Assembly: GCA_963921275.4 (NCBI GenBank)
Contig: OZ001293.3
Span: 2,208,001 to 2,272,000, forward strand
Source of the DNA: an uncultured Hormoscilla sp.
GTDB lineage: Bacteria > Cyanobacteriota > Cyanobacteriia > Cyanobacteriales > Desertifilaceae
DNA length: 64,000 nt
Direction of reading: 5' to 3'
The notes below the pieces were generated by a model that ran no database searches, was not told the DNA's origin, and worked only from the letters and a program-made list of their open reading frames with translations. The translations under genes were made by a program, and so were the position numbers. This document shows positions 1,841-57,872 of the stretch, piece after piece. The first letter of the stretch is position 1; every line of letters begins with the position of its first letter.

Positions 1841-2711
1841 GTGCGATTCGTTCTAGCCTAACGTGGTCAAACACGGAACGCTAGCCCGGTTTCATTAGCC
1901 GGGAACTCTGACCGCATGGGGGTTAAATTCCCCTCCCCCCAGGTACGGGGGTGACACCGGTCCTCGGTGCTACGAAGCGACATCATCGTGGTGCTAAGCG
2001 AGGACTCAAATGTAGGATAACTGGCAGCCTAAGCCGGTGACGCCGCTAGGAAAGATATCCAAGGTTAGAGCAGGCAAACATGTGTGCAAGCCTCGTTATA
2101 AGGAACCAGCGAAATAAGGCTATATGCGCTGGCCTAAAAAGGAAATGGTAGCTAGTATTAGTTTTAGACTCTGGCTAATATAGTACTCAAATAGCTCCCG
2201 GGGTATAGTGTGGACCTAAAGGTATCGCGAAATGTTGTTAGGGAACGAAGTAACCTCTCGTGTGCTGTCCATCAGGACAAGTTAGATGTTAAGCGCAAGC
2301 CACGGGGGGAGGGATGGCCCAAGAAGCGAATGCCCGGGGTAATTCCTGGGATAACATCTACAGTAATGTAGATGATGCTGGGTAGCCAGCGCTGACGTGG
2401 GTCGGTGATACTAGGAAGCTGCTGGAATGAGTAATCCTAAAAAGCCACGGAACTAATCCGAAACGCAAGTGGAGGATAAGGTATGGATAACTGGTAAAAC
2501 TGACTTGAAAATGGTGATACTAACGGTTATCAGAACAACCACTCGCTAAACCAGGAAAGGGAAGAAAAGACAGGCGGCAAGGGCTAACGGAAGTAATTTC
2601 TATTAAGTCTACCTATGAAAAGGGCCTAGTACCCAGTAGCCGGATGCGGTGAAAATCGCAAGTCCGGTTCCTCAAGGGAGGGTCGGGAAGCGATTCCCGG
2701 CTCGACCCCAT
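1841..2711 (+). mobile_element. ORF-less group IIB intron (type B, copy 2, complete, 871 bp)
   Basis: Starts GTGCG, ends ACCCCAT; domains V/VI at ~2637-2711. Loop AGACTC (2166-2171) is complementary to the 5' exon end GAGTCT. No RT ORF. Confidence 0.92.
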
Positions 2712-2994
2712 CCACCTCTGACAGCCAATTCAACAAATCTGACTGATTGGTAATCTCAAAAATTCTATCTGTTAACTCTTCTAAATCCGACAGTGACAAA
2801 CTTGCAATTTTGCTGTTGATTTCCGCTGTCATTTCACCAAATTTATTTTTGAGCAGGCGCATTGCTAAAGCGCTTGCTTCAGCAATGCGTCCTCGTTCAA
2901 TCCCTTGTTCAATCCCTTGTTCAATCCCTCGTTTAAGTCCTTGTTCCCAGGCTTCTTCACTGGCATATTTCATCCGTCCTATCTCATCTTGCAA
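2712..2994 (-). pseudogene. Duplicated 3' end of the Rpn gene (C-terminal domain only)
   Basis: Near-identical to 437-755 but with three fewer 12-bp GIEQ repeats. Confidence 0.85.
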
Positions 2995-3250
2995 GGCTTC
3001 GGCGCACTGGGGATTAACAGCGATCGCCTGTTAGTAATGGTAGATCGCCCGTTCGGGATCGTCCTGGGCCAGAAAAGCGACAGCCAAATTATTGTGAGCA
3101 TTAGCATTATCAGGTACCAGAGCCAGGTATTGTTGATAAAGGGCGATGGTTTCTGGGATGCGATCGAGAGCACAAGTCAGGGAGGCAAATTGCAGCAAAG
3201 CTTTAGCATTGTTTGGCAAGCTGAATAATTTAGCGATAAAGAGATTCCTC
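2995..3250 (-). pseudogene. TPR-repeat gene fragment
   Basis: ETIALYQQYLALVPDNANAHNNLAVA TPR motif with an in-frame stop; truncated by the duplicated Rpn segment. Confidence 0.7.
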
Positions 3251-3387
3251 AGTGTCTTCCGCAAGCTCTTGTCCAGAAGGACACAGCTGGCGCCCCCAGC
3301 GTAGCGCCATCAGCAAGCACCAGACACCGCTTTGTCAACCGTTCCGCCTAGTGATAACTGGTAGCAACTTGCAATTTCTCGGCTAAT

Positions 3388-6300
3388 TCATCTTTTTTTT
3401 TCCGCAACAATCTCCTGCAATGCCTGTTTGATAGCAGCAAATACAAAGGACCAATCGCCCCGTTTTTGCTGGCGGAACAGGCCCATGGTAGGATACCAGG
3501 GAGAATCTGAGCGTTCCAACATCCAGCGCCAGTCAGGAGCAAAAGCAAGCAGCACCCATACAGGTTTTCCGAGAGCACCTGCTAAATGAGCAACTGCCGT
3601 ATCTACCGTGATGACTAGATCGAGTTGTTCGGTAATCGCAGCAGTGTCAGCAAAGTCATGGATATGTGGGTCCAGATTGACCAGATTGGGGATATCCTGG
3701 GTAATATCTGCCACCCGATCGCCCTTTTGGAGACTATAGAAAGAAACGTCATTCATTTGTAGGAGAGGCAGAAAATGAGATAAGCTCAGAGAACGATGGC
3801 GATCGGTCCTATTCATAGTACTGCCCGCCCAAACGATGCCCACCTTTAACTGCGACTCCGTTCGTAGTAAGCACTTTAGCGCTTCCGACTCAACAGTATG
3901 CAAATAGGGGACATGGTTAGGAATTGTATCTAAGGTAGTACCCAGAATGCGAGGTAAACTCATCAAGGGAGCTTGCAGATCCAGTGGGGGCAACGGTTCT
4001 CCTTTAACTACCAATTGATCGATCCCATCTAGGGTTTCAAAGAGACGAATCAGAGGTTGCTGACATTCGACAACGACGCGGCCAGGTTTGCGGGCCCGTA
4101 CCATGGGCAAATAGCGGATAAATTGCATAGCATCGCCAAAACCCTGTTCCCCTCGCAGCAAGATAGTTTTCCCGTCCAGGGGGCTACCATCCCAAACATT
4201 ATGCAGGTAATGTCCTAGGGAAAAACCTTTTTGATGCCAGCGCCATTCATATTCTACAAAGCCTCGGGGAAAATCTCCACTCAGCAAAAGCGCGATCGCC
4301 AGGTAGAGGTGGGCCTCGGGGTTTTGGGGTTGCAGGGCTAGGGCCTGCTGATAATGGCAGATCGCCTGGCTTAAATTCCCCCGTTCTCGCCATGCCAAAC
4401 CCAGGTTAACATGGGCTATGCGCTGCGCGCACGCTTCGCGGTCAGCATGGTTGGGTTTGAGAGATAGCAACTGCTGATAAACCTGAATCGCCTCATCGGT
4501 GCGGTCTTCCCGCATCAGGGCCATGCCCAGATTATTGTAAGCCTCAATGTAATCTGGCTTCAGGGCGATCGCCTTTTTATAGTAAGGTATAGCTTCAGCA
4601 GCCCTTTCCAGCTTCCAGAGGGCCGCACCCAAATTATTCTGAACTTGGGGATAGTTGGGATTCAATGCCAGGGCCTGACGATAATGGGCGATCGCCTCTT
4701 CTGCATTATCCATTTGATAAGCAACGACCCCCAGAAGCTGGCGAGCATCCACATTATGAGGTTGGGCCTGTAGAATTTGATGATAGATACTGCGTGCGGC
4801 TTCCAGGCGTCCCCCTTGTTGATGCTGCACCCCAGCGTGCAGCCGAGATGTAATCTCATCTGTGGTCAGTTGTTTGGGTAGGGGCACGGCATCGGTTAAT
4901 TTTTGGATTCTTGAGTTAATTGTTGCAGGTCGCCCCCTCTTAAAGAGTTCAACTGACCACTCGCCAGACCATGACAATAAAGCTGATTTAACTCGCGCAA
5001 ACAGTTCGGACCAATCGCCTGGTTGCTGTTGGCGGAACAGGCGCATAGTTGGATACCAAGGAGAATCTTCGCGTTCCAATCTCCAGCGCCAATCAGGACA
5101 ATAGCACAGCAGCACCCATACAGGTTTACCGAGGGCTCCGGCCAGGTGAGCAACCGAGGTATCTATAGTAATCACCAAATCAAGTTGCTGGACAATTGCT
5201 GCGGTATCGGCAAAATCCTTCAATAGGGGGTCCAGGTTCGCCAAATTGCCAATATCGGGAGTAATATCTGCCGTCCTGCTGCCCTTTTGGAGACTATAGA
5301 AAGCGATGCCGGGTATTTCCAACAGTTGCCGAAAATAGGACAGACTGGTAGAACGGCGGCGGTCATTTTTATGAAAAGGATTCCCGGCCCAGACTATTCC
5401 CACCTTTAATTGACCCGTTTGTAGTAAGCACTTTAGCGCTTCTTCTCCCGTTAGCGCTTCCGTAGCGCTGGGGACAGCTTTTACGTAAGGCACTCGAGTA
5501 GGAATAGTTTCCCAAGTCGTACCCAGGATGCGAGGCAAACTCAGCAAAGCAGCTTTCACGTCAAAGGAGGGCAACTCTTCGCCCTTGATGACCACTTTGT
5601 CGATGCCATCTACTGTCTGCAACAGACGATAGACTGCGGGCTTACACATGACTATTACTTTGACGTTAGCACCCTGGGCCCGGATCAAAGGAACGTAACG
5701 GATAAAATTAATTGTATCTCCAAATCCCTGTTCGGTGTAAAGTAAAATTGTTTTGCCATCCAGGGACTCGCCCTGCCAGTCAGGTTGAGTTAATCCCGGG
5801 CCCTGTATGTGTTTCAGTTGCCAGCGCCACTCGTACTCCGCTAAACCCCGAGGATAATCTCCAGCTAACATTAAAGTAATCGCTAAACCCATGTGCGCTT
5901 CGGCAAACTGGGGGTTTAAGTCGATCGCCCGTTCGTAGCTAGCAATACATTCCTGTAGCTGACATTTTCTGTGCAGGGCCACTGCCAAATTATGGTAAGC
6001 GTCGGTGAAATTGGGGTTCAGGGCGATCGCCTTGCGGGACATGGCTTCTGCTTCGTCCACTCGGTCCATTTCTTCGAGAACCAAACCCAGGTTACTATAA
6101 CCTATAGCATAGTTGGGATCCAAGGCGAGCGCCTGTTGCAAATGGGTTTTAGCTTCATCTAAGCGTCCCACATCCTTGAGTGCCATGCCCAAGTTGCTGC
6201 GGACCGAGGCCGAATTTGGTTCCATGCCGATCGCCCGCTCGTACATGGCGATCGCCTCTTCCAGCTTATTCTGTTCTTGGAAAATCGAGCCCAAACTGAC

Positions 6301-20225: not shown

Positions 20226-20450
20226 ATTTGATTTTTCCCTTGATTAAGATTATAACGCGATGTGCAACTTTCTACGGAAGAATAACGATTTGGTGGTCTT
20301 TGGCTGAAAATGTTGTTCTCAAAACTCCCTAAATCTCGTTAGTTGGAAAAATTCGCTTCATCCATCACGGGTGCGATCGCCTACCAGACCACCGACTCCT
20401 GGGTGATACTGGCGCTATTCGCACAAAAAGGGAGACACTGCGGATGTGAT

Positions 20451-20720
20451 ACGACTCTTCCGTACCCGAGTACGACTCCTCCGTACCCGAGCACGACTCC
20501 TCTGTGCCCGAGCACGACTTTTCTGTGCCCAAGCACGACTTTTCTGTGCCCAAGCACGACTCTTCCGTGCTTGAGCAAGACTCTTCCGTGCCCGAGCAAG
20601 ACTCTTCTGTGCTTGAGCAAGACTCTTCCGTGCTTGAGCAAGACTCTTCCGTGCCCGGGTACAACTCTTCCGTACCCGAGCACGACTCTTCCGTACCCGG
20701 GTACGACTCTTCCGTACCCC
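20451..20720. repeat. Tandem array of 13 x 21 bp (consensus ACGACTCTTCCGTGCCCGAGC)
   Basis: Exact 21-bp period from 20451 to 20703. Confidence 0.95.
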
Positions 20721-20909
20721 ATGTGGGTTCAAATACAGTTATAGCATATTTCTATCTCGATATCTGAGGAGGAATTCACGGTCGGTGCTGGCGCTGACAA
20801 ACAGCAGATTTGAGATAGGCCGCCAATTTTTGAGAAGAATCTGGTCAACAAGCATGTTGGATAATTATGGGGCAATATTCAATCAGCGATCGGGCAGTTA
20901 GGCTTGCTC

Positions 20910-25898: not shown

Positions 25899-27586
25899 CG
25901 ACTATCTCCTTCACAATGCTTTTTCCAGAGAACGCTTGGTTCTCTAGGAGAGCGAGTCGGAATCTAGTTATCGCTCTTATCCGACTCGTCCTAACCCTGG
26001 AAGATGCTTGAGTTAGGACTTCCTAACCTAACTCGATCTTACACATACTCCGCCTTGATGGTAATCGACGGGCTGTTGTCGAACACCTTGATGAAACTGA
26101 TGTTGATGTCCATGTTGTAATACCAGGCGTTGCTGCCAGAATTATTGAGAGCATCGGCCCGTTCATTGGGATAGCCATTGACTATCGGTTGCAACTGTTG
26201 CCCCCTGATGCTAACGCTCTTCAACGGACCATTGCTTCCCTTATGTTCCCCCGGATCGTGCAATACTGCCACGAAGAAATGCTTCTCGAAGGGCGGCGTA
26301 TATCCGTCGTAGATGCGCTCCACTTTAATTTCCCGCGTCTTTTCGCTAGTGTAGCTGTGGGTAATCTTGGTCTCGCGATATTCGTCCTTGGCGTTGGGAT
26401 CGTCCACCTCTGCTTGTGGGGCAGAAGAACGGCTCACCCCATCGTCCAAATACATGTGGTATTCCCCTTCCTTCCCTGGATAAATATTCAGGGTAATGGG
26501 ATTGGGCTTACCTTCCGCATTCAATTGTCCCACATATTGTTTCAGTTCGATGATCGGAATGATTGCCCCTGCCCGGACGTGGATCGGAACAATAAAGTGA
26601 ATGTGATCGCCATTGGTATTGATGTTGGCATCAAAATCCCGTATCGTTGTGCCCCCTTCTACCGCAGCACCAAGAGGCATAACGTTGTCCACAAAGCAAT
26701 ACCAGTTGCTACCTTTGGGCACATAGACATCCCGCCGGCCATTGTTGTTGTCTTCAGATTGAGGGTGCAACACTGGAGCAATAAGCAGATCCTTGCGAAC
26801 GAAGAACTCGTTGTTCAGGAATTGGTCTTTATCATTGTAGAGGGATTCATCTTGGGGATCGTTGAGGAACAAGGAGCGGCAGATGGGCATCCCATTCAGG
26901 GTGTTCTCAAACAATGCGTCATAGAACAACTGCATCAGCCGGTAACGCAATTGAATGTAATGCCGGCAAATCGGCAACACCATCTCATACAAGTCTCGGG
27001 GTTCTGGGATATTGCCGCCGATATGTTCGTAAAACCAATCTACATACTGGAATGGTTCTTGGAACTCATTGCGCCCTTTGCGGACGTAGTGGTTGCGGAA
27101 CCAGGGTAAGAAAGCACCAGCCGCAGTCCAGCGGATCAGCAGTTCTGGACTTGCCCACTTGCCCCGATCGATTTCCCCCTCTTCAAAGCCGCCGATATCT
27201 TGCCCCGTGATTGCCAAGGCATGCATCCCTAGAGACAGGACTTGGGAGATATTCATCTGGAGGAAATCCCAGTCAGAAGAGTTATCCCCCGTCCACAAGC
27301 CAGCATATCGGTGAGAACCAACATAACTGCCCCGTCCGATGATAAAGTTGCGTTTGTTCTCCCGTCCGGGCAGTTTATTGAGTCCTTCGTAGGTGGCTTT
27401 GTGAAGATTGTAGGAGTACAAGTTCCAGACTTTGAGGGCTGGCTTCAACTCCAGTTCTCCTTGGAAATCGCTGCTCACATAGAGCTTGAAGGGGAAGCCC
27501 TTCATATCTCCACGGGAGTCGCGGATCGCCGGGGTGGTCATGTCCTGCCAGACAAATTCTAGCCCCTGCTCAAACAGGTATGTATA

Positions 27587-28598
27587 ACCTAAGTTGCGAC
27601 CTATTAAAAAAAATATGAATTACCCACTTAGACTTTACAGATATTTGGGATATTTCGTAGCTTTTGATACAAAATTATATTTTTTTTGTGCTAGACGGCG
27701 GGTTGGCTGTTTATAGGTTATAATGTACTAAAATAATAGTTAATTGCTGGGGGATGTAGATGATGGAAGATATGATTACAACAATTTTTGTTCTTTGTGA
27801 CGAGCTACTAAAAGCGTTAAATATAAAAGAAGATCCACAAGTAAAAATGAACAATGCCGAAGTGATGACAGTCGGATTAGTTGCTGCATATTTTTTCGGA
27901 GGACACCACGATCGCTCTTGTCAATTTATGGTCCAACACAAGTATATAAAAAATCTGTTAAGTAAAAGTAGGTTCAATCGTCGATTACACAATATTGACG
28001 AACCAATTTGGATGTTTTTCTTCCAAGTTATAGCTCAAACATTTAAAGAGCTCAATCCGGGTCAAGAATATATTCTTGATAGTTTCCCGGTGCCAGTATG
28101 TGATAATATTAGGATTGATAGATGCCAAATTTATAACAAGAAAGAATATCGAGGGTATATTGCCAGTAAAAAACGTTATTTTTATGGATTAAGAGTTCAT
28201 ATGTTGGTAAACAAAAATGTAAAGCCAATAGAATTTTATCTAGATCCTGGTAGTTATAATGATGTTAAAGTTTTACAATCTTTTGGCTTTGACTTACCAT
28301 CAAATTCAATAGTTTATGGAGATAAAGCTTATAATGATTATCAATTAGAGGATTTACTAAAAGAGTCGTCAAGTATAATGTTAAAACCTTTGCGAAAAAA
28401 GAACTCAAAAAGAAAAGAATCTTCTTGTTTTGAATATATACAAAAAGTAACAATAAAACAAGTTGAAACCTGTTTTATTTGAATCACAAATTTGTTTCCC
28501 AAGTCAATTCATGCTGTTACATCTAAGGGATTAGAGTTGAAAATAATTCTCTTTATCATAGCTTTTTGTATCCAATTTTTATAGGTCGCAACTTGAGT
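27587..28598 (+). mobile_element. IS982-family insertion sequence, 1012 bp
   Basis: TIRs ACCTAAGTTGCGACCTAT / ATAGGTCGCAACTTGAGT; 8-bp TSD TATGTATA at 27579-27586 and 28599-28606; AT-rich. Confidence 0.92.
27760..28584 (+). pseudogene. IS982 DDE transposase with premature TGA at 28480-28482
   Basis: LDSFPVPVC, YFYGLRVH, YGDKAY. The frame continues ITNLFPKSIHAVT to TAG at 28582-28584. Confidence 0.85.
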
Positions 28599-30140
28599 TA
28601 TGTATATTGCTTGCCCCACCATTCACGGACTTCTGGCCGGGCTAGATCGGCGTAATGCCCCGGAGTTCCCAGTTGGTTCCCGGCGGCATCTTCTCCATAG
28701 TAAACTTCGCCAATGTAAGGTTCGCCACTATTGAAACCTTCAACCCAGCCATTATTGGGACAGAATTCATGACCGCTACCGTAGATTTGGTAGTATTTGC
28801 TCTCGGGATTGTCCGCATCGTAACGCTTGTCGATCACAAAGTAGTCTTTTTCTAGTCCCTCCTTGTAGGTTGGGTAGTAACCTGGGTTGTCCTCATCTTG
28901 TTTGCTGATCACCGGGGTGATGTTGGTGCTGCACTTGACACCTTGCGATCGCAACCAACCGAACATTTCCTTTGGGCTGTCGAAGGTTTTCTCGTAGGGG
29001 CTGTTCTTATTGTAGATGTAATCCGGCTTGATGGTGAAAGTCCGGTAGTTATCTTGGATATCGACGTCCACCGCGAGGCCATCAAGGGGAATGTCATAAC
29101 TCCGGTATTTTTCTACAATCCACTTGAGGTCAGCCGCACATTCGTACCCATAGCAACCTTGGTGACATCCTAGGGCGTAACGCGGTTTCAACTCGGCGCG
29201 GCCAACAATGGCGGTAAAGCTATCCAAGATGTTCTTCGGGTCTTCTCCCAAGAACACATAGTAGTCAAGATCCCCAAAGCGGGTGCCGAACATATAGCGA
29301 CTGGAGTTGCTATAGCCGATATCGATGAAGACTTGAGAGGGGTTGTCCAGGAGAACCGCATTGACGTTTTTGCTACCGGGAATGCCATTGAACTCGTAAA
29401 AGAACGGCTCCGAGTGGTAAAGAGGCTCCCGGTTATCTAACGGTCCGCGATCGTAGACCTGTCGATAGCGCATATTATCGAAGTTGAAATAATTTAACTG
29501 GTCGCTATTTTTTTGGAGTTTTGTTCCCCCTTGTTCCCCAAACCCGATATATTTGCCGTTGGCTGGTTTCTTGACCGCTTGGATGACGGCATAATCCTCT
29601 TTGCCATGCGGGGTATAGTAAATTGCCGTGTCTGCGGTTTGCCAGACGGTAATTTTTGCATATTCCGCATTGGATGGGGAGTTGTTGAATACTTTGATTC
29701 CGAAGGGAGCCAAGGTGACAACCACTTGCATCACGATGGAGTTAAATTCCGACTTCGTTGTCAAGACGATCTGGCCGTTGCCTTCTTGGCAATCTAGATC
29801 GAAGATATATTGTTGCCTGATTTCCTCGTCCGCCTCATCGAAGTCGCAGTGTTCCAGCAAGTGCGTGAAACTGCTGTATTCCGCCTCCGTTGACTTGGTT
29901 GGGTTAAAGCGCACCCGTAATGTATCGTTCTGAAGCACCTCTATCAACATCAGGCAATCGCTGCCATCGACCTTCTTAAATTTAAGGCTCAAAGTCTTTT
30001 GCTCTTTATTGAAGGAATGACCGACAGATGACCCCAGTTTGTCCCATTCTTGGTAGCGGCCAAAATATTCCTCGACCTTGAGAAATTTGTAAACGCGATG
30101 ACTTGGAAAAATTTCGTTGGACATTACTTGACTCTTCTCC

Positions 30141-30860
30141 TTAGTTAGAATTTTTTTTTGGGTGATATTCGATCGCCATCCATATGCAATCCGTCTCTGC
30201 ATAATACTGATGCCACGGATAGGTATATTGCTGGTTTTCGTGAACCTGACAAAATGGCACGATCTGGGTGTATCCCTCAGTCATCAAGAGGTCTTCATAG
30301 AGACTCTCAAAACTTTTCACCTTGAACTTCTGCATCCGTCCCTGTCCAAAGACTTGGGTGTGAATCTCCAGAAAGTCATGTTGGTTATGGATTGCACAAT
30401 CGGTACGGGAAGGGGCATACCAGAGGTTCACTTTGACACAGAACTTTTCTTGGTGACTGGGCGCACTTGATTGCCTGGCCATAAAATACGGATCCACTTC
30501 TATGATTCCCGCCTCGTCTTGGGGAGACTTCCATAGCGGGATGTCTGTGGGAAAGTTCGTGTCTGGGAAGTTACCCAATAGATCCCACCCTGGCTCAAAG
30601 ACAATCTTGCCGATATTGTTGGTCTCTACCACTGAGAGCAAAAGTAAGGACTTTGCTTTTTCGATGGTAGTATCTTTGAGTATAGTCGATGAAAAAGCCG
30701 GAATTATGCTGACGTTTGCTTCCTTCAGGTAAGCATCAGTTTCTTCGGGGTTGACTGCGATTGTACGGTTCTGAATGGGATAGTTTTCCACATTTTCAAC
30801 GCATTTCGCGTCTATGTACGCACCGGAAAAGTTAATGACTTTGACTTGGTTAGTTGTCAT
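30141..30860 (-). CDS. Cupin-type protein resembling the cupin region of aldos-2-ulose dehydratase
   Basis: NLWYAP..TDCAIHNQHDFLEIHTQ and YPWHQY His/Glu metal motifs; ends 16 nt before the glucan-lyase-like start. Confidence 0.6.
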   Translation of the reverse strand: MTTNQVKVINFSGAYIDAKCVENVENYPIQNRTIAVNPEETDAYLKEANVSIIPAFSSTILKDTTIEKAKSLLLLSVVETNNIGKIVFEPGWDLLGNFPDTNFPTDIPLWKSPQDEAGIIEVDPYFMARQSSAPSHQEKFCVKVNLWYAPSRTDCAIHNQHDFLEIHTQVFGQGRMQKFKVKSFESLYEDLLMTEGYTQIVPFCQVHENQQYTYPWHQYYAETDCIWMAIEYHPKKNSN

Positions 30861-31224
30861 TTGTTTGTGAGAGAGATTTCCAAGACCCTTTTAGGCCACT
30901 CTAACTGAACCGATCTCGCGATCGCTGGCTTAACTGCCCTTATGTTTCGGGGTGCATCTTCTGTATTGTTTGTATTGTTAATTTCGGCGATCGGTGCCTT
31001 TCAGGAAAGGCACCGATCGCAGGAGCGAAAGCTGCTAGCTTTTGCCCAACAACGAGTCTAGGGCTAAAGTGAGATGCACCGGACACCTTGTTTCTAACTT
31101 CGATTATCATCGTATCACAGAGAATGTCTTTTTCTCAACCAACTACATATTTTTCTTATAGCAATTATCTATTTATATCATATACTAATTTCTATGGGTG
31201 ATTGCAGATGCCAAAGTGAGATGG

Positions 31225-32093
31225 ATGGGGTCGAGCCGGGAATCGCTTCCCGACCCTCCCTTGAGGAACCGGACTTGCGATTTTCACCGCATCCGGCTAC
31301 TGGGTACTAGGCCCTTTTCATAGGTAGACTTAATAGGAATTACTTCCGTTAGCCCTTGCCGCCTGTCTTTTCTTCCCTTTCCTGGTTTAGCGAGTGGTTG
31401 TTCTGATAACCGTTAGTATCACCATTTTCAAGTCAGTTTTACCAGTTATCCATACCTTATCCTCCACTTGCGTTTCGGATTAGTTCCGTGGCTTTTTAGG
31501 ATTACTCATTCCAGCAGCTTCCTAGTATCACCGACCCACGTCAGCGCTGGCTACCCAGCATCATCTACATTACTGTAGATGTTATCCCAGGAATTACCCC
31601 GGGCATTCGCTTCTTGGGCCATCCCTCCCCCCGTGGCTTGCGCTTAACATCTAACTTGTCCTGATGGACAGCACACGAGAGGTTACTTCGTTCCCTAACA
31701 ACATTTCGCGATACCTTTAGGTCCACACTATACCCCGGGAGCTATTTGAGTACTATATTAGCCAGAGTCTAAAACTAATACTAGCTACCATTTCCTTTTT
31801 AGGCCAGCGCATATAGCCTTATTTCGCTGGTTCCTTATAACGAGGCTTGCACATGTTTGCCTGCTCTAACCTTGGATATCTTTCCTAGCGGCGTCACCGG
31901 CTTAGGCTGCCAGTTATCCTACATTTGAGTCCTCGCTTAGCACCACGATGATGTCGCTTCGTAGCACCGAGGACCGGTGTCACCCCCGTACCTGGGGGGA
32001 GGGGAATTTAACCCCCATGCGGTCAGAGTTCCCGGCTAATGAAACCGGGCTAGCGTTCCGTGTTTGACCACGTTAGGCTAGAACGAATCGCAC
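31225..32093 (-). mobile_element. ORF-less group IIB intron (type B, copy 3, 869 bp)
   Basis: Reverse complement of 1841-2711. 5' exon ends GAGTGT; 3' exon begins CCA. Confidence 0.92.
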
Positions 32094-32247: not shown

Positions 32248-32320
32248 GTCGGGGTCGAGCTGGGAATCGCTTCCCAACCGGACCTTTCGGAACCATGGGT
32301 GCGACTTTCACCGCACCAGG
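32248..32320 (-). mobile_element. Isolated domain V-VI remnant of a related group II intron
   Basis: Reverse strand reads TGCGGTGAAAGTCGCA...GGTTCCGAAAGG...GGGAAGCGATTCCCAGCTCGACCCCGAC. Confidence 0.75.
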
Positions 32321-32879
32321 TCACTCAATTGACTTTGAAACACAAAGTCCCACAGAACTTGCTCTCACATTATTTGCTTGCGGCTTCCTCACACAGTCAG
32401 ATTACGAGATACTGGTAAAAGCAATTGCAATCTCAGACCGCGTGATAGAACAACAGGAGAAAGTAGCAGTTGCACAAAATTTTGCTGACCAAGCTTTTGA
32501 GGTGGTGCAGCGTCTTGTTCGCTTCCATTCCCAAGTATAGTAAGTTGGTCCCACGACACTGGGGAAGACCCAGATAAGGTTCTATCCTCTCGGGCCGCGC
32601 CACCAGGCAGCCCCCTATGCTAAATTAACACTAAGCCATGTTCATGTCGGACCGGGTCCGAAACGATAACTATGTCTCTGGGAAATTTGCGCGACCTCTA
32701 TCAACAAGTTATTCTAGAACATTACAAGAAGCCTCGGCATCGGGGTAAAACAGAACCGGTGCATCGGTCCCAGCGGGGACATAACCCCAGTTGCGGGGAT
32801 ACCATCGAGCTGACTCTGCAACTGAATGATGCACGCGATCGCATCTGTGATGTAAAATTCTCTGGGGAAGGCTGCGCGA
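32321..32879 (+). repeat. Near-exact 559-bp direct duplication of 33766-34324 (3' end of hypothetical gene, intergenic region, 5' part of sufU-like gene)
   Basis: Constant 1445-bp offset; accounts for ORFs 32295-32540 and 32672-32920. Confidence 0.95.
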
Positions 32880-33383: not shown

Positions 33384-33985
33384 CTACAGCATTATCAAAA
33401 TTGTCAGATCCTATGAGCGACGAAATTGCCGATCGCTATAGACAGCAAGGTTATCGAGTTTTAGTGAAGCCGCGCGTGGCTCCCTTGACTGAATTTATTT
33501 CCAGAGCGGATCTAGATTACATTATCCACGCGGAAAAATCAGCGGTGATTGTAGCCTTAAAACCTTCTGATATCCGGCCTGTAGTTAAAGATGAATCTGA
33601 TAGCGAGCAAATACCAACATTGTATGATTATCCGGTGAGAGATTTGACAGATATTTCCATATATCAGTCGAGAGCAGGGTATCTAATAGCAAAAGGAGAT
33701 TTTGATGCAGCTGTTTGTGGTGCTGTGTTTATAGCTAAAGTAGTGATGCGGATGATAGCAGAACATCACTCAATTGACTTTGAAACGCAAAGTCCCACAG
33801 AACTTGCTCTCACATTATTTGCTTGCGGCTTCCTCACACAGTCAGATTACGAGATACTGGTAAAAGCAATTGCAATCTCAGACCGCGTGATAGAACAACA
33901 GGAGAAAGTAGCAGTTGCACAAAATTTTGCTGACCAAGCTTTTGAGGTGGTGCAGCGTCTTGTTCGCTTCCATTCCCAAGTATAG
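33380..33985 (+). CDS. Hypothetical protein (restriction-endonuclease-like N-terminus, helical C-terminus), start overlapping the RusA-like stop
   Basis: IADRYRQQGYRVLVKP...D motif; ATGA overlap at 33380-33383. Confidence 0.55.
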   Translation: MTTALSKLSDPMSDEIADRYRQQGYRVLVKPRVAPLTEFISRADLDYIIHAEKSAVIVALKPSDIRPVVKDESDSEQIPTLYDYPVRDLTDISIYQSRAGYLIAKGDFDAAVCGAVFIAKVVMRMIAEHHSIDFETQSPTELALTLFACGFLTQSDYEILVKAIAISDRVIEQQEKVAVAQNFADQAFEVVQRLVRFHSQV

Positions 33986-34116
33986 TAAGTTGGTCCCACG
34001 ACACTGGGGAAGACCCAGATAAGGTTCTATCCTCTCGGGCCGCGCCACCAGGCAGCCCCCTATGCTAAATTAACACTAAGCCATGTTCATGTCGGACCGG
34101 GTCCGAAACGATAACT

Positions 34117-34596
34117 ATGTCTCTGGGAAATTTGCGCGACCTCTATCAACAAGTTATTCTAGAACATTACAAGAAGCCTCGGCATCGGGGTAAAACAGAA
34201 CCGGTGCATCGGTCCCAGCGGGGACATAACCCCAGTTGCGGGGATACCATCGAGCTGACTCTGCAACTGAATGATGCACGCGATCGCATCTGTGATGTAA
34301 AATTCTCTGGGGAAGGGTGCGCGATCGCGATGGCGTCGGCGGACTTGATGGCGGAGGCCTGCATCGGCAAAACAGTTGGAGAAGCTCTGGAAATGGTAGA
34401 AAGGTTCCAAGGGATGATGAAAGGAGAGGTAGAGTTTCCCAAAGAACTGCGGAAGTTGAACGTCATGCAAGGCGTTTCCCAGTTCCCAGTCAGAATCAAA
34501 TGTGCTAATCTGACTTGGCATACCCTGAAAGCGGCCCTGAAAAATCCCTTAGGCAGTCAGCCAGAAGCAGGGTTTGTCAGCAACGAACAGGATTAA
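34117..34596 (+). CDS. sufU: SUF-system NifU/SufU-family Fe-S assembly protein
   Basis: LYQQVILEHYKKP, NPSCGD, GEGCAI, FPVRIKCA. Confidence 0.9.
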   Translation: MSLGNLRDLYQQVILEHYKKPRHRGKTEPVHRSQRGHNPSCGDTIELTLQLNDARDRICDVKFSGEGCAIAMASADLMAEACIGKTVGEALEMVERFQGMMKGEVEFPKELRKLNVMQGVSQFPVRIKCANLTWHTLKAALKNPLGSQPEAGFVSNEQD

Positions 34597-42919: not shown

Positions 42920-45900
42920 TGATCCCCCCCAGCAGGAGTATCAGGCCTTAAGGGCTCTCTATCAAAGCACCAATGGGGCTTCTTGGACGAACAATACAGG
43001 CTGGCGGGACTGGAATTTCAACAGCCAAACTCCCCCCGAAGCTTCTGTTGTTAATGGTTGGTTTGGGGTGACGGTAGATAGCGACAGGGTGACTGAGCTC
43101 CAGCTGAACGTCAACTTCCTGACTGGCAGCATCCCGACGGAGTTAGGGAATCTTTCCAATTTGGAGGATCTCTGGCTGGACTTCAACCAACTGACTGGCA
43201 GCATCCCGACGGAGTTAGGGAATCTTTCCAATTTGGAGGATCTCTGGCTGTTCTCCAACCAACTGACTGGCAGCATCCCGACGGAGTTAGGGAATCTTTC
43301 CAATTTGGAGGATCTCTGGCTGTTCTCCAACCAACTGACTGGCAGCATCCCGACGGAGTTAGGGAATCTTTCCAATTTGGAGGATCTCTGGCTGTTCTCC
43401 AACCAACTGACTGGCAGCATCCCGACGGAGTTAGGGAATCTTTCCAATTTGGCATCTCTCTACCTGGACTCCAACCAACTGACTGGCAGCATCCCCCAAG
43501 AGGTTCTAGATTTGAGTGCCTTCAAGCGGTTGGAAAACCCCCCTTATGTTTTAACCGAGATTTCCGACGTCCAACTCTTGCTAAGTAATAACCTCAACAT
43601 AGACATTAGCGCAAATTTCGGCGACATCAATAACAACATCGACAATTACACAGCTACCGGTTTACCAGGGGGCGTAACGATCAACAGTCGGGGAGTTATC
43701 AGCGGTACTCCTACTACCGCAGACATCTTTACCGTAACGGTAACTGCCACCGACGCTGCTGGGAACAGTTACTCAGAAGCCTTTACTATTAGCGTCAATG
43801 AGATCCTCCAGCAGGAGTATCAGGCTTTAAGGGCTCTCTATCAAAGCACTAATGGGGCTTTTTGGAGGAACAATACAGGCTGGCGGGACTGGAATTTCAA
43901 CAGCCAAACTCCCCCCAAAGCTTCTATTCTTAATGGTTGGTATGGAGTGACGGTAGTTAACAAGAGGGTGACGGAACTCTGGCTGCACTCCAACTTCCTG
44001 ATTCGCAGCATCCCGACGGAGTTAGGGAATCTTTCCAATTTGGAGGAACTCCGGCTGTCCAACAACTTCCTGACTGGCAGCATCCCGACGGAGTTAGGGA
44101 ATCTTTCCAATTTGGAGGATCTCTGGCTGGAGGAAAACCAACTGACTGGCAGCATCCCGACGGAGTTAGGGAATCTTTCCAATTTGGAGTCGCTCCGGCT
44201 GGACGACAACTTCCTGACTGGCAGCATCCCGACGGAGTTAGGGAATCTTTCCAATTTGGAGGATCTCTGGCTGAACTCCAACGAACTGACTGGCAGCATC
44301 CCGACGGAGTTAGGGAATCTTTCCAATTTGGAGTCGCTCCGGCTGGACGACAACTTCCTGACTGGCAGCATCCCGACGGAGTTAGGGAATCTTTCCAATT
44401 TGGAGTCGCTCCGGCTGTACTCCAACCAACTGACTGGCAGCATCCCGACGGAGTTAGGGAATCTTTCCAATTTGGCATCTCTCTACCTAAACTCCAACCA
44501 ACTGACTGGCAGCATCCCGACGGAGTTAGGGAATCTTTCCAATTTGGAGTTTCTCAATCTGAAATACAACCAACTGACTGGCAGCATCCCGACGGAGTTA
44601 GGGAATCTTTCCAATTTGGAGTTTCTCTGGCTGCGCTCCAACCAACTGACTGGCAGCATCCCGACGGAGTTAGGGAATCTTTCCAATTTGGCATCTCTCT
44701 GGCTGACCTCCAACCAACTGACTGGCAGCATCCCGACGGAGTTAGGGAATCTTTCCAATTTGGCATCTCTCGTGCTGACCTCCAACCAACTGACTGGCAG
44801 CATTCCGACGGAGTTAGGGAATCTTTCCAATTTGAGTCGTCTCCGGCTGAACAACAACCAACTGACTGGCAGCATCCCGACGGAGTTAGTCTTTCCCATT
44901 TGTGGACGTTCTACCTGAACAACAACCAACTGACTGGCAGCATCCCGACGGAGTTAGGGAATCTTTCCAATTTGGAGTTTCTCAATCTGAAATACAACCA
45001 ACTGACTGGCAGCATCCCGACGGAGTTAGGGAATCTTTCCAATTTGGAGTTTCTCTGGCTGCGCTCCAACGAACTGACTGGCAGCATCCCGACGGAGTTA
45101 GGGAATCTTTCCAATTTGGAGTTTCTCTGGCTGGAGGAAAACCAACTGACTGGCAGCATCCCGACGGAGGGAATCTTTCCAATTTGATTTGGCTCTGGCT
45201 GGAAGAGAACCAACTGACTGGCAGCATCCCGACGGAGTTAGGGAATCTTTCCCATTTGTCGCAGCTCTACCTGAACAACAACCTCCTGACTGGCACCATC
45301 CCCCAAGGGGTCTTAGATTTGTGGGCTGAAAAGCGGTTGGAAAACCCCCCTTATGTTTTAACCGAGATTCCCGACGTCGAACTCTTGCTAGGTAATAACC
45401 TCGACATAGACATTAGCGACAACTTCGGCGACATCAATAACAACATCAACAATTACACAGCTACCGGTTTACCAGGGGGCGTAACCACCAACAGTCAGGG
45501 AGTTATCAGCGGTACTCCTACTACCGCAGACACCTTTACCGTGACGGTAACCGCCATGGACGCAGTGAGCAATCAAGGGACAGATATCTTTGACATTGTT
45601 ATAGAGAACTCCCCTCCTACCGAGCGTAGCGAGCAACTCTACGAAAACGGGGGGAACGACTATCTCATCGGCAGATATGAAAACGACAGTCTCATCGGCG
45701 GATATGGAAAGGATACCCTCATCGGCGGATATGAAAACGATACTATCTACGGAGGAGGTGGGAACGACTCTCTCATCGGCGGACGTGGAAAAGATACCAT
45801 CTACGGAGAAGATGGGAACGACTCTCTCATCGGCGGACGTGGAAAAGATTACCTCTACGGAGGAGATGGGAACGACTCTCTCATCGGCGGACGTGGAAAA

Positions 45901-50531: not shown

Positions 50532-50629
50532 CTGGGATCTAAGTATGAAGTCGTAAGCTGGTATCTCGGTGAAATTATCTTTTCCAGTATATCATGGCGG
50601 AGGTGGGCGGTGCCCACCCTACGAGTAAG

Positions 50630-51140: not shown

Positions 51141-51146
51141 TGATTA

Positions 51147-53753: not shown

Positions 53754-54575
53754 ATGATTTGGTTTTTTAAGCGCAAGTCCAAGAAACAAATAGCTCGGAT
53801 TGAAATTACCGGGGCGATCGCCGCTTCCACGAGGAAACAGGTACTAGAAGCGCTGGAGATGGTTGAGGAGAAAAAATTTCCGGCCTTACTGTTGCGGATA
53901 GACAGTCCAGGCGGTACAGTAGGAGATTGTCAAGAAATCTACAGCGCCCTGATGCGTCTGCGAGAGAAGGTGAAGATCGTCGCCAGTTTTGGCAATATCT
54001 CTGCTTCCGGAGGAGTCTACGTTGGTATGGGGGCTGAATATATCGTGGCCAATCCGGGCACAATCACCGGTAGCATAGGGGTGATTGTGCGGGGAAATAA
54101 TCTAGAGAGGCTGCTAGAAAAGATCGGCGTTCAATTCCAAACGATCAAATCTGGTCCCTATAAAGACATCTTGGCATTCGATCGGGAAATAACCTCCGCA
54201 GAACAGGATATACTGCAACAGTTAATCGATATTAGCTATCAACAATTTGTCGAAACAATAGCTTCGGCCCGCCAACTGGCAGTCGAAACAGTCAAAACTT
54301 TTGCCGACGGTCGGATTTTTACGGGTCAGCAAGCTTTAGAATTAGGGGTTGTGGACCGACTGGGCACGGAAGCGGACGCCCGGCAATGGGCAGCAGAACT
54401 GGCGGGGTTGGATCCTGTCAAAACTGAGTGCAATACGATCGAGGCACCAAAATCCTTCTGGAGTCGCTTGATATCAGGGGAGAGTAGGGTAAAATCTGAT
54501 CTGTCGGTGGCTATTGACTGGGTAGAGTGGGAAATGTCTACCAATGGTCTGGCTCTTTGGCTGTATCGACTCTAA
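53754..54575 (+). CDS. sppA: Signal peptide peptidase SppA (short form)
   Basis: RIDSPGG, SASGGVY, TITGSIGV, KSGPYKD, ADGRIFTG. Confidence 0.92.
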   Translation: MIWFFKRKSKKQIARIEITGAIAASTRKQVLEALEMVEEKKFPALLLRIDSPGGTVGDCQEIYSALMRLREKVKIVASFGNISASGGVYVGMGAEYIVANPGTITGSIGVIVRGNNLERLLEKIGVQFQTIKSGPYKDILAFDREITSAEQDILQQLIDISYQQFVETIASARQLAVETVKTFADGRIFTGQQALELGVVDRLGTEADARQWAAELAGLDPVKTECNTIEAPKSFWSRLISGESRVKSDLSVAIDWVEWEMSTNGLALWLYRL

Positions 54576-54593
54576 GAAGAGGAGGAGAAGCGC

Positions 54594-55055
54594 GTGGATT
54601 GGCGAGTGCGGGCGATTCGCGGGGCAATTACGGTCCCAGAAAATACTATCGAGGCAATCACTCTGGCAGTGACGGAACTACTAGATGAACTGGAAGGAAA
54701 AAATCGGATATTCCCAGACCAGATAATCAGCATGACTTTTTCGGTGACTCGCGATCTGGATGCGATTTTCCCGGCAGCGGTTGCCCGCTTGCGTCCCGGA
54801 TGGGACCAGGTGCCCCTACTGGACGTGCAGCACATGCATGTAGAGTCGGCATTATTACGCTGCATTCGCTTCCTACTTCACGTTAACATGCCAGCCGAGC
54901 AGGTGGTTTACCATCCCTATTTGCGCCACGCTCAAAAATTGCGACCGGATTGGCTAGAGGCACAATCAGTGTCCCTCGGGATCGCATCGTTCCCAGGCAG
55001 AGCCTGGGAACGCACTACCCGGGGGACGCCAACTCCTCATTTTAATCAATTGTAA
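54594..55055 (+). CDS. aroH: Chorismate mutase (AroH type); C-terminal tail derived from REP-like repeats
   Basis: RAIRGAIT, FSVTRDLDAIFPA, RCIRFL, HPYLRHA..LRPD. Confidence 0.9.
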   Translation: MDWRVRAIRGAITVPENTIEAITLAVTELLDELEGKNRIFPDQIISMTFSVTRDLDAIFPAAVARLRPGWDQVPLLDVQHMHVESALLRCIRFLLHVNMPAEQVVYHPYLRHAQKLRPDWLEAQSVSLGIASFPGRAWERTTRGTPTPHFNQL

Positions 55056-55079
55056 GGTGGGCATCGCCCACCCTACATG

Positions 55080-55964
55080 TTATTGTTTGGCCTGACCGTT
55101 CCAGCGAATGCCCAGAAAAATGTCGTACAGAAAGTTCCCCAAATCTTTTGCTTGCAGCAGTCCCAAGGTTTGATGACAGCCTTTAGCATCCAGTAGGGGC
55201 TTGACAGCCTGGTAGGCAGGCTGATATTTGTACCAGGGCATGGAGGGCCAGAGGTGATGAACCAGATGGTAATTCTGTCCGCCAATCAGCAGATTCAGCA
55301 TGGGACTGGGGTAAACTCTGGCATTCTTCCAGCGATCGCGTTCCTGAAAGGGACGATGGGGTAAATAATCGAAAAATAGCCCCAGGACCAGTCCCACCAC
55401 CCCAGCGGGGACAAACCAGAAGTTAAGAATATACCCGATAAAGCCGTAGTGACAAGCAAGCAAGACGATCGACGCTAGGAAAGCCCGACTCAAAAACCAT
55501 TCGAGTAACTCGTACTTACGCCACAGCCGACGCTGGAAGAAGTATACTTCATGGTAAAAGAATCTGGCGTTAATCAGCCAGAGGGGACCGCCAGTGGAGA
55601 CAAAATGATCTGGATCATTTTCAGGGTCGTTGACATGGGCATGATGATGTAGATGTACCCGGGTGAACACCGGAAAGGTAAAACCTAGCATCAGCGCACT
55701 GCCATGTCCTAAAATAGCATTCAGCACGCGGTTAGCATGAGCTACATGATGAGAGGCATCGTGAATTACGGTTCCCACCATGTGTAGGGCAACTACGTTC
55801 AAGCCAAAGCAGCACCAGTCTGGCCAATTCCAACGCCAGTAGCCGCAGGTGGAGAGCACTACCATTCCTACCGCTACCAGAAACATCAGTAAATTGAGAT
55901 TGAAGCCGCCAGTTGGACCGAGAAACTCTTTGGGAACCGTCAGGGGCTTGGTCGCCTCCGACAT
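55080..55964 (-). CDS. crtR: Beta-carotene hydroxylase
   Basis: His boxes HDASH, RVHLHHH, NYHLVHH; HFVSTGGPLWLI. Confidence 0.93.
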   Translation of the reverse strand: MSEATKPLTVPKEFLGPTGGFNLNLLMFLVAVGMVVLSTCGYWRWNWPDWCCFGLNVVALHMVGTVIHDASHHVAHANRVLNAILGHGSALMLGFTFPVFTRVHLHHHAHVNDPENDPDHFVSTGGPLWLINARFFYHEVYFFQRRLWRKYELLEWFLSRAFLASIVLLACHYGFIGYILNFWFVPAGVVGLVLGLFFDYLPHRPFQERDRWKNARVYPSPMLNLLIGGQNYHLVHHLWPSMPWYKYQPAYQAVKPLLDAKGCHQTLGLLQAKDLGNFLYDIFLGIRWNGQAKQ

Positions 55965-57003
55965 TATTTTATACTCCTGATGATGTATATTATTACTTGG
56001 GTAGTATAGGATATTCTTGATAAATTGTAAAGTTTTGTGATGTGAGCTGACAACATCTACAGCTGGCTGCGGTTCGCCCGTGGTTATACGGCCGTCAGCT
56101 TAAATCACCAATTAATATCATGTCGGGTTGAATGCACCTGATTAAGCGGCCTTGATTTTTGGCCACCAATGATATAAGGTCAACCCCTCAATTAACTCTT
56201 GCTGTTGGAGTAATTGGCGACATCGCTCAACCGGTGTCTTCCACCTCATCAATGCTATTAAACGCTTTGTTGGCTAAAGGTTCATCGATTAATGGCCATA
56301 ACCGCTCAGCTGGTTGCAACTCTGGTGAATAGGGGGGCAGGGGGAACAGGTGAATCCCTTCAGGCACCTGGAGCTTTTCCGTCATATGCTAGCTAGCCTG
56401 GTGGAGAGGGAGAATTACCCGTTTATCTTTGCCAACTTGGAAATGATAGGCAAAGTCTTCGAGCACCGCAGCGAATAGCTGGCTATTCACCTCGGGAAGA
56501 AGCCACCAGTATCTCCTGTTTGGGGTTGGACAAAACCGTACAACCACAACCATTCCCGTTTCCAGTTGACCTTGGCAATCGGCACTGAGAGTGCTTCTAC
56601 CCAGACAGGGCGAGTCACTGGCTGCAATCCGATGGGATGTTCATCTTCTGCCCAAATCTCGACGGTAGCTTCGGAATTGACTGTTGAATCCGTTCCACCT
56701 CTACGAGCAGTTTTTTTTGCCATTCAGACTGAACTTCCTCTACCGCCTCAATATGCTCAGGACGCGGCACTCTTAAACGAAACCCCATCGGCTTAAGATC
56801 TACCCACCCTTGTTGCCAGCTAATACAGATACCAAAGGCATCCCTCAAGTAGTCACAGACAGAGGCGCCCATTCCAAAGACCTCCATCGGGGGCGAGCCC
56901 ACAGCAATTGGGCCTGTTGTATATCATCGAGTTTCGAGTGCGATTCGTTCTAGCCTAACGTGGTCAAACACGGAACGCTGGTCTAGGAAACTAGAAACTC
57001 TGG

Positions 57004-57872
57004 ATGGGGTCGAGCCGGGAATCGCTTCCCGACCCTCCCTTGAGGAACCGGACTTGCGATTTTCACCGCATCCGGCTACTGGGTACTAGGCCCTTTTCAT
57101 AGGTAGACTTAATAGGAATTACTTCCGTTAGCCCTTGCCGCCTATCTTTTCTTCCCTTTCCTGGTTTAGCGAGTGGTTGTTCTGATAACCGTTAGTATCA
57201 CCATTTTCAAGTCAGTTTTACCAGTTATCCATACCTTATCCTCCACTTGCGTTTCGGATTAGTTCCGTGGCTTTTTAGGATTACTCATTCCAGCAGCTTC
57301 CTAGTATCACCGACCCACGTCAGCGCTGGCTACCCAGCATCATCTACATTACTGTAGATGTTATCCCAGGAATTACCCCGGGCATTCGCTTCTTGGGCCA
57401 TCCCTCCCCCCGTGGCTTGCGCTTAACATCTAACTTGTCCTGATGGACAGCACACGAGAGGTTACTTCGTTCCCTAACAACATTTCGCGATACCTTTAGG
57501 TCCACACTATACCCCGGGAGCTATTTGAGTACTATATTAGCCAGAGTCTAAAACTAATACTAGCTACCATTTCCTTTTTAGGCCAGCGCATATAGCCTTA
57601 TTTCGCTGGTTCCTTATAACGAGGCTTGCACATGTTTGCCTGCTCTAACCTTGGATATCTTTCCTAGCGGCGTCACCGGCTTAGGCTGCCAGTTATCCTA
57701 CATTTGAGTCCTCGCTTAGCACCACGATGATGTCGCTTCGTAGCACCGAGGACCGGTGTCACCCCCGTACCTGGGGGGAGGGGAATTTAACCCCCATGCG
57801 GTCAGAGTTCCCGGCTAATGAAACCGGGCTAGCGTTCCGTGTTTGACCACGTTAGGCTAGAACGAATCGCAC
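57004..57872 (-). mobile_element. ORF-less group IIB intron (type B, copy 4, 869 bp), inserted antisense into intron A
   Basis: Near-identical to 31225-32093; 3' exon again begins CCA. Confidence 0.92.

Follow-up and report, generated by a model that had tools for sequence, protein, structure and literature searches.

What are the near-identical, non-coding repeats that recur along a cyanobacterial chromosome, and how did they reach their present number and positions? Four of them lie in a 64,000-nt stretch of the genome of an uncultured Hormoscilla sp. (GenBank assembly GCA_963921275.4, contig OZ001293.3, positions 2,208,001 to 2,272,000), hereafter the window, where a first-pass annotation had described them as copies of a group II intron without an open reading frame (ORF). 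Genome-wide analysis of this repeat family, here called fam1, leads us to identify it, with a probability of about 85%, as a group II intron of the IIB2 type of cyanobacteria and chloroplasts, lacking an ORF, that has undergone a very recent burst of trans-driven retrotransposition, selecting its targets through relaxed pairing between exon-binding sites (EBS) in the intron and intron-binding sites (IBS) in the target. Bacterial group II introns are usually few, and they usually lie outside genes.

Boundaries, ribozyme features and copy number

The fam1 unit spans 871 nt and runs from GTGCG to CATCC (GUGCG...CAUCC in RNA). Its first bases read GTGCGA in 138 of 139 full copies and GTGTGA in the other, in agreement with the GUGYG start of group II introns. 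The first-pass annotation had reported precise ends, placing the 3′ end at ...AT and starting the 3′ exon at CCA; GTGCG stands, whereas the 3′ boundary has to be moved. CC follows directly after ...CAT in 138 of the 139 full copies. Paralogous empty sites lack it, with junctions reading GAGTCG/ATAGCC, GGATCT/AAACTC and AAGTCT/ACCTATG (the slash marks the insertion point), while their occupied counterparts read .../intron...CAT-CC/ATAGCC and so forth. The absence of CC from the empty sites indicates that it was brought in by the element. As a frame control, the element was excised up to CAT plus a variable number of nucleotides, and spanning ORFs of at least 150 codons were scored at 106 sites. 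Excision to CAT+2 restored such ORFs at 48 of the 106 sites, compared with 21, 16, 20 and 16 for +0, +1, +3 and +4, respectively; +5, which leaves the same frame as +2, restored 47. The empty sites, the trailing CC and the frame control together define a unit of 871 nt followed by A as the first base of the 3′ exon, so that the CC belongs to the intron.

Each of the four window copies matches the Rfam domain V/VI model RF00029 with 44.4 bits, against a gathering score of 40. The alignment (AGCCGGAUGCGGUGAAAAUCGCAAGUCCGGUU) shows the catalytic AGC, a 2-nt bulge and a GNRA-type loop in domain V and, behind it, a domain VI whose stem carries compensatory changes between intron families. It ends at CAU, 2 nt short of the 3′ end, and the Rfam consensus has 6 nt past the branch A. 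The putative branch A of fam1, placed from the sequence, lies in CUCGACCCC, 8 nt from the last base, and the same spacing is found in a second family of the genome, fam2 (...CGACU; ...CCCCGACU), and in two other introns of the window, Y (...CUAAU) and X (...CAACU). The equal spacing in these three introns marks it as a trait of the lineage and not an oddity of one element. The last base, compared with the ...AY end of group II introns, is a pyrimidine in all four, with a penultimate A in Y only. An interpretation of the terminal CC as a quirk of mobility (an alternative splice site or a circle junction) was dropped, fam2, X and Y having the 8-nt spacing too.

The minimum-free-energy z-score of fam1 is −2.88. 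Among the features considered for subgroup IIB2, as defined in PMC8643678, are two hairpins at about nt 13-44 and 45-63, present in a minimum-free-energy fold of a single sequence. The fam1 consensus holds no ORF, and thus no RT/maturase (RT, reverse transcriptase) in domain IV; its longest stop-free stretch has 58 codons, in line with the earlier statement that the copies encode no RT. Comparison of its ends (GTGCG... and ...CATCC) revealed no terminal inverted repeats, and comparison of empty and occupied sites, which differ by the element alone, revealed no target-site duplication.

The genome (G000) consists of seven contigs totaling 7.03 Mb at 47% G+C, with a chromosome contig (C1) of 6.88 Mb. 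Searching it by megablast yielded 160 high-scoring segment pairs (HSPs) at ≥95% identity. Full length and without interruption are 139 of these, all on C1, with 64 on the forward and 75 on the reverse strand. There is no clear replication-strand bias: arms delimited by the GC-skew extremes carry 38 forward and 50 reverse copies, and 26 forward and 25 reverse copies, the skew being weak and irregular and the origin uncertain. On average a copy departs from the consensus at 1.24 positions (0.14%); 61 of the 139 match it exactly, and 21 share a TC-to-GA change at 830-831 that sets them apart as a subfamily. By their flanks the 139 copies sort into 106 classes, and similarity ends sharply at GTGCG and CATCC. 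With 104 distinct flank classes remaining after the removal described below, these data bear out the proposed recent burst of a non-autonomous ribozyme.

Across 40 other genomes of the order, long matches to fam1 were found in four congeners only. The closest congener (G004) has 2 full copies at 91% identity, and the matches in the others (75-83%) are to other intron families. The confinement of long matches to congeners, and the presence of 2 copies in G004, indicate that the burst is confined to this lineage. A wealth of introns, by contrast, characterises the genus: with 150 candidates scored per genome, three of the four congeners have from at least 86 to at least 127 RF00029 matches, and none was obtained among the candidates scored in one genome of a neighbouring genus. 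Logan contigs from four runs (on three samples from a single study that may have supplied the assembly), covering 19 kb with five fam1 copies, end 22-29 nt inside the element ends. At these five sites no contig bridges a junction under a 31-nt rule and no joint skips 871 nt; the sides of the joints measure 20-27 nt, as expected of repeat k-mers. The contigs are therefore uninformative on occupancy and polymorphism.

Target choice, nesting and effects on host genes

A target logo was compiled from 104 distinct sites, obtained by subtracting from the 106 flank classes two in which another copy forms the upstream flank. It reads CCTTA-NN-GRGTYT/A. On the EBS1 side the preferred bases (104 sites) are −6 G 93, −5 A 64/G 35, −4 G 77, −3 T 81, −2 C 76/T 23 and −1 T 91; on the EBS2 side they are −13 C 69/T 20, −12 C 61/T 31, −11 T 71, −10 T 64 and −9 A 63/G 15. 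Downstream, +1 is A 80/G 13 and positions +2 to +12 carry no information. The logo is the complement, wobble included, of an EBS1 AGACUC and an EBS2 UAAGG (about positions 259-263 of the consensus), and the second-choice bases sit exactly where a G-U wobble is possible. From the preference for A or G at +1, EBS3 is presumed to be U. The first-pass annotation had noted the 5′ flanks GAGTCT, GAGTGT and GAGTACT and their match to a loop AGACTC at 2166-2171, all of which we confirmed in the sequence; the genome-wide search and flank logo that it had proposed return sharp ends, mostly distinct flanks and complementarity to AGACTC.

The assignment of EBS1 and EBS2 rests on covariation in three related introns, not on one sequence. 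In fam2, EBS1 UGCACU faces IBS1 AGUGYA and EBS2 UCUAG faces IBS2 YUAGA; in intron Y the pairs are GGGAAU/AUUCCC and AACCC/GGGUU; and in the G004 relative, 91% identical to fam1, they are UCUAGA/UUUAGG and AGUAA/UUAUU. Two other EBS2 candidates, AAGGTT (about position 222) and the invariant AUAAGGCU loop (about position 275), were rejected, as neither covaries with the targets of fam2 and Y. Both families show an additional preference for A at −15 (76 of 104 sites in fam1, 38 of 55 in fam2) and for A or C at −14 (A 47/C 32 over the 104 fam1 sites), and fam1 has a U two nucleotides upstream of EBS2. The positions agree with those given for EcI5 and cyanobacterial IIB2 introns by Monachello et al. 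2021 (PMC8643678), who place IBS1 at −6 to −1, IBS2 at −13 to −9 and an EBS2a-IBS2a interaction at −14: fam1 shares both IBS positions, a further conserved position directly before IBS2 and the U two nucleotides before EBS2. The additional signals resemble the EBS2a-IBS2a interaction and may represent it, but the strongest of them in fam1, the A at −15, is offset by one position.

Occupied sites form 8 to 12 of 12 possible pairs, with a mode of 10 (11, 21, 44, 26 and 2 sites for 8 to 12 pairs), whereas random positions peak at 4-5 pairs and only 0.8% of 200,000 reach 9 or more. Sites are thus accepted with 1-4 mismatches, upholding the relaxed EBS/IBS targeting that had been suggested from the window.

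Copies also lie within or against other copies. Head-to-tail arrays of fam1 without spacer comprise three copies at G000:C1 5447656-5450268 and two at 824934-826675. These arrays fit a model in which the 5′ exon survives insertion and the first base of the intron, G, is accepted at +1. At five loci (e.g. 1325884-1327623) fam1 is nested in itself at element position 770/771, and its own sequence holds AAGTCT/A after TCCTA, the self-nesting site. A composite element is formed by an RT intron with a 600-aa intron-encoded protein (IEP), found at G000:C1 2406917-2409925 and at least eight further sites (e.g. 1057198-1061070 and 4451358-4455229) with differing outer flanks. It carries a sense fam2 copy, located about 240 nt inside the 5′ end, and at least eight composites also hold an antisense fam1 copy that shortens the 600-aa IEP to 486 aa, ahead of the HNH domain. 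The composite nest appears to move as one unit.

Removal of the unit shows how often genes have been hit. The 48 of 106 sites at which ORFs are restored comprise 26 sense and 22 antisense insertions, leaving 58 sites without an ORF. At 35 of the 48 restored sites one or both halves carry a Pfam family, and in at least ten cases one profile continues across the junction. Antisense examples of the latter are SpoIIE (profile positions 2-123/125-191), DUF4347 (1-69/73-164) and a PRK/uridine-kinase family (1-103/108-180); sense examples are DUF3352 (4-188/189-489) and PhyH (1-137/140-211), and further sense host genes encode DUF3611, dihaem cytochrome c and DUF6851 proteins. Sense copies in DUF3352, PhyH, MscS, dihaem cytochrome c and pentapeptide-repeat genes are found at G000:C1 5954245, 6741940, 10308, 3080205, 6725628 and 6726904. 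Antisense copies are not removable from the host mRNA, and the genes concerned are therefore broken; among them are genes for a Ser/Thr kinase, a CheA-like kinase, a GAF protein and an AAA ATPase, and several intron RT genes. The 22 antisense insertions inside ORFs justify the earlier description of fam1 as an insertional mutagen. Antisense insertion, which that description had put forward from an Rpn-like gene of the window, holds for that copy and fails as a genome-wide rule, given 26 sense against 22 antisense cases.

Proposed mobility in trans, competing explanations and known systems

fam1 belongs to a much larger intron population. A census of the chromosome with a domain V/VI profile based on 20 local seeds, which scores domain V/VI only and counts fragments, returned 481 hits, 447 of them near complete and all on C1. 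Clustering at 95% identity gave 146 groups, with 148 hits in fam1, 75 in fam2, then 14, 9, 9, 9 and so on down to 106 singletons; fam1 and fam2 account for 223 hits at ≥99% identity. IEP-like coding sequence lies within 1.5 kb upstream of only 55 of the 481 hits, about 89% being without RT coding nearby, and of only 2 of the 148 fam1 domain V hits, by adjacency. fam2 is a second ORF-less burst family of about 835 nt with 72-73 copies at ≥99% identity (e.g. G000:C1 14200-15034), 55 flank classes and the target AAYTRGA-NN-AGTGYA/A; its 3′ end was set from empty sites and from ORFs restored at 22 of 55 sites versus 9 of 55.

Potential helpers are plentiful. Pfam matches in the genome include 75 to GIIM and 93 to RVT_1, and 23 ORFs of at least 540 aa bear a Y[AV]DD motif, with an RVT_N + RVT_1 + GIIM + HNH architecture; candidate drivers include IEP families of 600, 607 and 609 aa. 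A conserved domain IV block yields 255 hits, 143 at 100% identity (fam1), 75 at about 90% (fam2) and 31 others. It is common to fam1, fam2 and several small ORF-less families, and is 86-94% identical where the introns are otherwise about 72% identical. This pattern suggests one old loss of the ORF followed by diversification, with the domain IV block as a candidate protein-binding site.

We propose that excised fam1 RNA would be bound by an RT/maturase supplied by an ORF-containing intron of the genome, the helper acting in trans because the element encodes nothing. The resulting complex would reverse-splice into DNA that pairs with EBS2 (−13 to −9), EBS1 (−6 to −1) and the presumed EBS3 (+1), and the inserted RNA would then be copied into DNA. 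Tolerance of 1-4 mismatches would lead to retrotransposition to many ectopic sites instead of homing to one. Such a burst would strike genes in both orientations; re-entry at occupied sites would produce the head-to-tail arrays, and entry into other introns the nests. RNA splicing, a particular driver protein and continuing mobility are the parts of this scheme that we infer.

Several observations weigh against this interpretation. The putative branch A lies 8 nt from the end instead of the usual 6-7, and the presumed 3′ splice site after CC derives from DNA boundaries. The EBS3 nucleotide was not located in the RNA, its presumed U deriving from the +1 bases. There are 156 empty sites with all 11 exon-1 pairs, so that pairing alone does not predict insertion, and about 35 of the 139 copies share their flanks with another copy, which may reflect DNA duplication or movement of a host element. 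No RT intron of the genome has a ribozyme close to fam1, partial matches reaching 66-79% and the best 72-79%, so that no cognate helper can be named. The first-pass annotation had suggested looking for an RT-encoding relative with matching domain IV; when the two domain IV halves of fam1 were aligned locally with the surroundings of the 23 IEP ORFs, only low scores resulted. Nor was the domain IV block found within 1.5 kb upstream of IEP ORFs, save for one of the 31 hits outside fam1 and fam2.

The absence of a cognate RT intron from the genome would also fit a burst that is already over, its copies being recent but immobile relics, for instance after loss of the helper, or kept near-identical by gene conversion. 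Truncation of the 600-aa IEP family by fam1 in at least eight copies points the same way, as would the lack of empty-site joints at five sites in contigs of three samples from one study, were those contigs informative. Against this stand the 61 of 139 copies equal to the consensus (mean divergence 0.14%), the persistence of 23 long IEP ORFs and antisense gene knock-outs that are still unpurged, and we consider it improbable.

Very improbable, in turn, is a mainly DNA-level spread, in which the copies multiplied by segmental or tandem duplication or travelled with other repeats, in place of intron retromobility. Such events have left traces: copies A and B form a tandem array with a copy 2.3 kb upstream of the window, copy A being a deletion derivative, and flank clusters comprise 10, 6, 5, 4, 3 and 3 copies, one of them in the composite RT intron at eight or more sites. 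For most copies this explanation is nevertheless largely refuted by the 104 different flank classes among 139 copies, by similarity that stops exactly at GTGCG and CATCC, by flanks carrying the pairing logo with its wobble signature and by empty paralogous sites that differ by exactly the 871-nt unit.

That many copies are assembly artefacts has no specific support beyond high-copy repeats being a known source of error, and we give it almost no credence for a chromosome in a single 6.88-Mb contig, where copies have their own flanks, excision restores ORFs and Pfam domains, and separately assembled congeners are also intron-rich. A DNA transposon, or true miniature inverted-repeat transposable element (MITE), that merely resembles a group II intron would likewise be short, non-coding and high in copy number, and is refuted by the missing target-site duplication and the EBS/IBS covariation, the targets complementing two internal loops that covary in four relatives, in an element with a canonical domain V/VI and no terminal inverted repeats.

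Trans-driven retrotransposition of an ORF-less intron thus remains our preferred explanation, and reverse splicing with a trans-acting intron protein is already known from Thermosynechococcus, so that the kind of element is known. Mohr, Ghanem and Lambowitz (2010, PMC2882425) describe 28 introns in Thermosynechococcus elongatus, 17 of them ORF-less through one ORF deletion and few in genes, with ORF-less TeI3 introns mobilised by "driver" IEPs of TeI4 introns. Like TeI3, fam1 is a cyanobacterial IIB-type intron that has lost its ORF, shows EBS divergence between families and inserts into other introns (twintrons); in both genomes ORF-less copies outnumber ORF-containing ones, and TeI3 is mobilised in trans, as proposed here for fam1, and enters insertion sequences. 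In contrast to what is described there, fam1 alone has 139-148 copies, with 48 of 106 sites in ORFs and in both orientations, occupies mostly imperfect sites, forms head-to-tail arrays and nests in itself, and no close ORF-containing parent was found.

For their splicing, ORF-less introns in dnaN of Trichodesmium erythraeum use the IEP of another intron, RIR (Meng et al. 2005, as cited in PMC12584367), and a twintron is described in Trichodesmium (PMC4649490). Both systems involve nested introns and ORF-less cyanobacterial introns served by a maturase encoded elsewhere, as is proposed for fam1; unlike the fam1 burst, the Trichodesmium introns are few copies at fixed positions in housekeeping genes (PMC12584367). 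The comparison with short interspersed nuclear elements (SINEs) and MITEs, implied by the term "retro-MITE" in the first-pass annotation, holds as an analogy only: fam1 is likewise short, non-coding and high-copy, with its protein made elsewhere, but it would insert by RNA-guided reverse splicing, has neither inverted repeats nor target duplication and could in principle remove itself from sense transcripts.

Across 1,790 representative bacterial genomes, a published census counts 5.3 introns on average per intron-bearing genome and at most 101, in Arthrospira platensis (Miura et al. 2022, PMC8919778). The present genome resembles that of A. platensis in being of filamentous-cyanobacterial type and rich in CL-type and ORF-less group II introns; its 481 domain V/VI hits (447 near complete) include fragments and are not strictly comparable with 101. 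In the full-text literature searched, the supplementary tables of PMC8919778 aside, no bacterial genome is reported to exceed 101 group II introns. What is new here is the scale, the ORF-less share, the many imperfect ectopic sites in genes in both orientations, and the arrays. We suggest tentatively, rating it somewhat below an even chance, that this is the most heavily intron-invaded bacterial chromosome yet seen, with an invasion that is ongoing or barely finished and ORF-less ribozymes that depend on a shared pool of trans-acting intron proteins. If true, it would constitute a natural prokaryotic model of a proposed stage in the origin of spliceosomal introns, with many degenerate introns, a common splicing factor and a tolerant host.

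Experimental group II intron invasions have been reported to be harmful enough to explain the rarity of these introns (PMC6298092); a chromosome that tolerates hundreds of them is a natural system for host survival of an intron burst. It bears on EBS/IBS mismatch tolerance in vivo, on the identity of a general driver protein and on whether insertions are spliced out in sense orientation and act as knock-outs in antisense, and the roughly 100 natural target sites make up a ready specificity data set for a IIB2 intron.

Copies and neighbours in the window

The four near-identical copies (A to D) named in the first-pass annotation were recovered with corrected coordinates, at 1-438 and 1841-2713 on the forward strand and at 31223-32093 and 57002-57872 on the reverse strand. 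They are joined by direct (D7, D8) and inverted (I1-I6) repeat pairs, all 100% identical over 246-636 nt. With 148 copies in 6.88 Mb, a stretch of 64 kb would hold 1.4 on average; the four found here are about 2.9 times that figure, a density only mildly unusual. Just upstream of and into the window, G000:C1 2197988-2210713 holds five fam1 copies in 13 kb, two in TPR/glycosyltransferase genes and three in a PD-(D/E)XK array.

Copy A, at first taken as merely cut by the window edge, is a 5′-truncated derivative (element about 396-871, from a partial HSP with query positions 396-871; RF00029 at 360-436). Its start, near element position 396, lies 40 nt ahead of the window and against the upstream region of the preceding PD-(D/E)XK gene. 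Copy A is a deletion derivative within a tandem array of intron-plus-gene units that also takes in copy B and a further copy 2.3 kb upstream of the window. A PD-(D/E)XK_2 + DUF4351 (Rpn-like) gene from the ORF list, at 351-1466 on the reverse strand (PF12784, 8.8e-47; PF14261, 3.3e-13), extends its final 29 or so codons into copy A, which is antisense to it. Copy B (1841-2713) is full length at 873 nt; a GT insertion and one substitution set it apart from the 871-nt consensus. On its forward strand, EBS2 (UAAGG) is assigned to 2099-2103, pairing with target positions −13 to −9 (CCTTA), and EBS1 (AGACUC) to 2166-2171, pairing with −6 to −1 (GRGTYT), both from the logo and the covariation with fam2, Y and the G004 relative; domains V and VI occupy 2635-2713 by the RF00029 alignment plus the two terminal C beyond it. 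Copy B is followed at 2714-2994, on the reverse strand, by a truncated PD-(D/E)XK_2/DUF4351 paralogue (repeat D6/D7; PF14261, 8.1e-14) with the same insertion site as that of copy A. Both copies lie antisense just past the DUF4351 domain of their PD-(D/E)XK_2 genes and replace the last codons only. The 3′ flank that had been noted as shared between insertion sites is, for copies A and B, explained by paralogous genes or by a tandem duplication of the DNA. Within these genes, a 12-nt repeat (CAATCCCTTGTT-like) varies in number among the tandem paralogues (window 616-755 and 2891-2994; G000:C1 2206760-2206870).

Copy C (31223-32093, reverse strand) equals the family consensus and has no spanning ORF at its site. 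It adjoins a domain V/VI remnant of another group II intron at 32251-32317 on the reverse strand (nhmmer 28.3 bits, E 8.4e-6).

Copy D (57002-57872, reverse strand; one difference from the consensus) belongs to a nest of three introns. It lies antisense inside the degenerate outer intron X (56938-59319, forward strand), which is represented by HSPs at 94-229 and 389-507 only and by a domain V/VI match at 59241-59316, lacks the part of domain I bearing EBS1 and EBS2, and also hosts intron Y. X is itself antisense in a helix-turn-helix transposase-like gene, identified by Pfam for 56615-56902 and 59269-59574. Intron Y (57897-58653, forward strand; RF00029, 43.9 bits at 58575-58653) is ORF-less and about 80% identical to fam1, and sits in sense orientation in X, where the target matches Y's EBS1 and EBS2 perfectly, with the flank ...GGGTTAGATTCCC.

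Other repeats and disrupted genes were also recorded. An exact 300-nt direct repeat with an 85%-identical continuation, at 32321-32762 and 33766-34207 (1445 nt apart), duplicates the start of a NifU-like gene and its upstream sequence. Within 26039-30202, a reverse-strand glycoside hydrolase family 31 gene is split (26039-27541 and 28598-30202) by a DDE transposase gene at 27760-28482. Outside the window, contig C3 (31,420 nt) has 17.6% G+C, against 42-49% in the other six contigs, which raises the possibility of foreign or contaminant DNA. Two regions of the window, 42953-45279 and 20411-20767, contain long in-frame tandem repeats, one with a 72-nt period in an LRR/He_PIG protein gene and one with a 21-nt period in an unassigned region.

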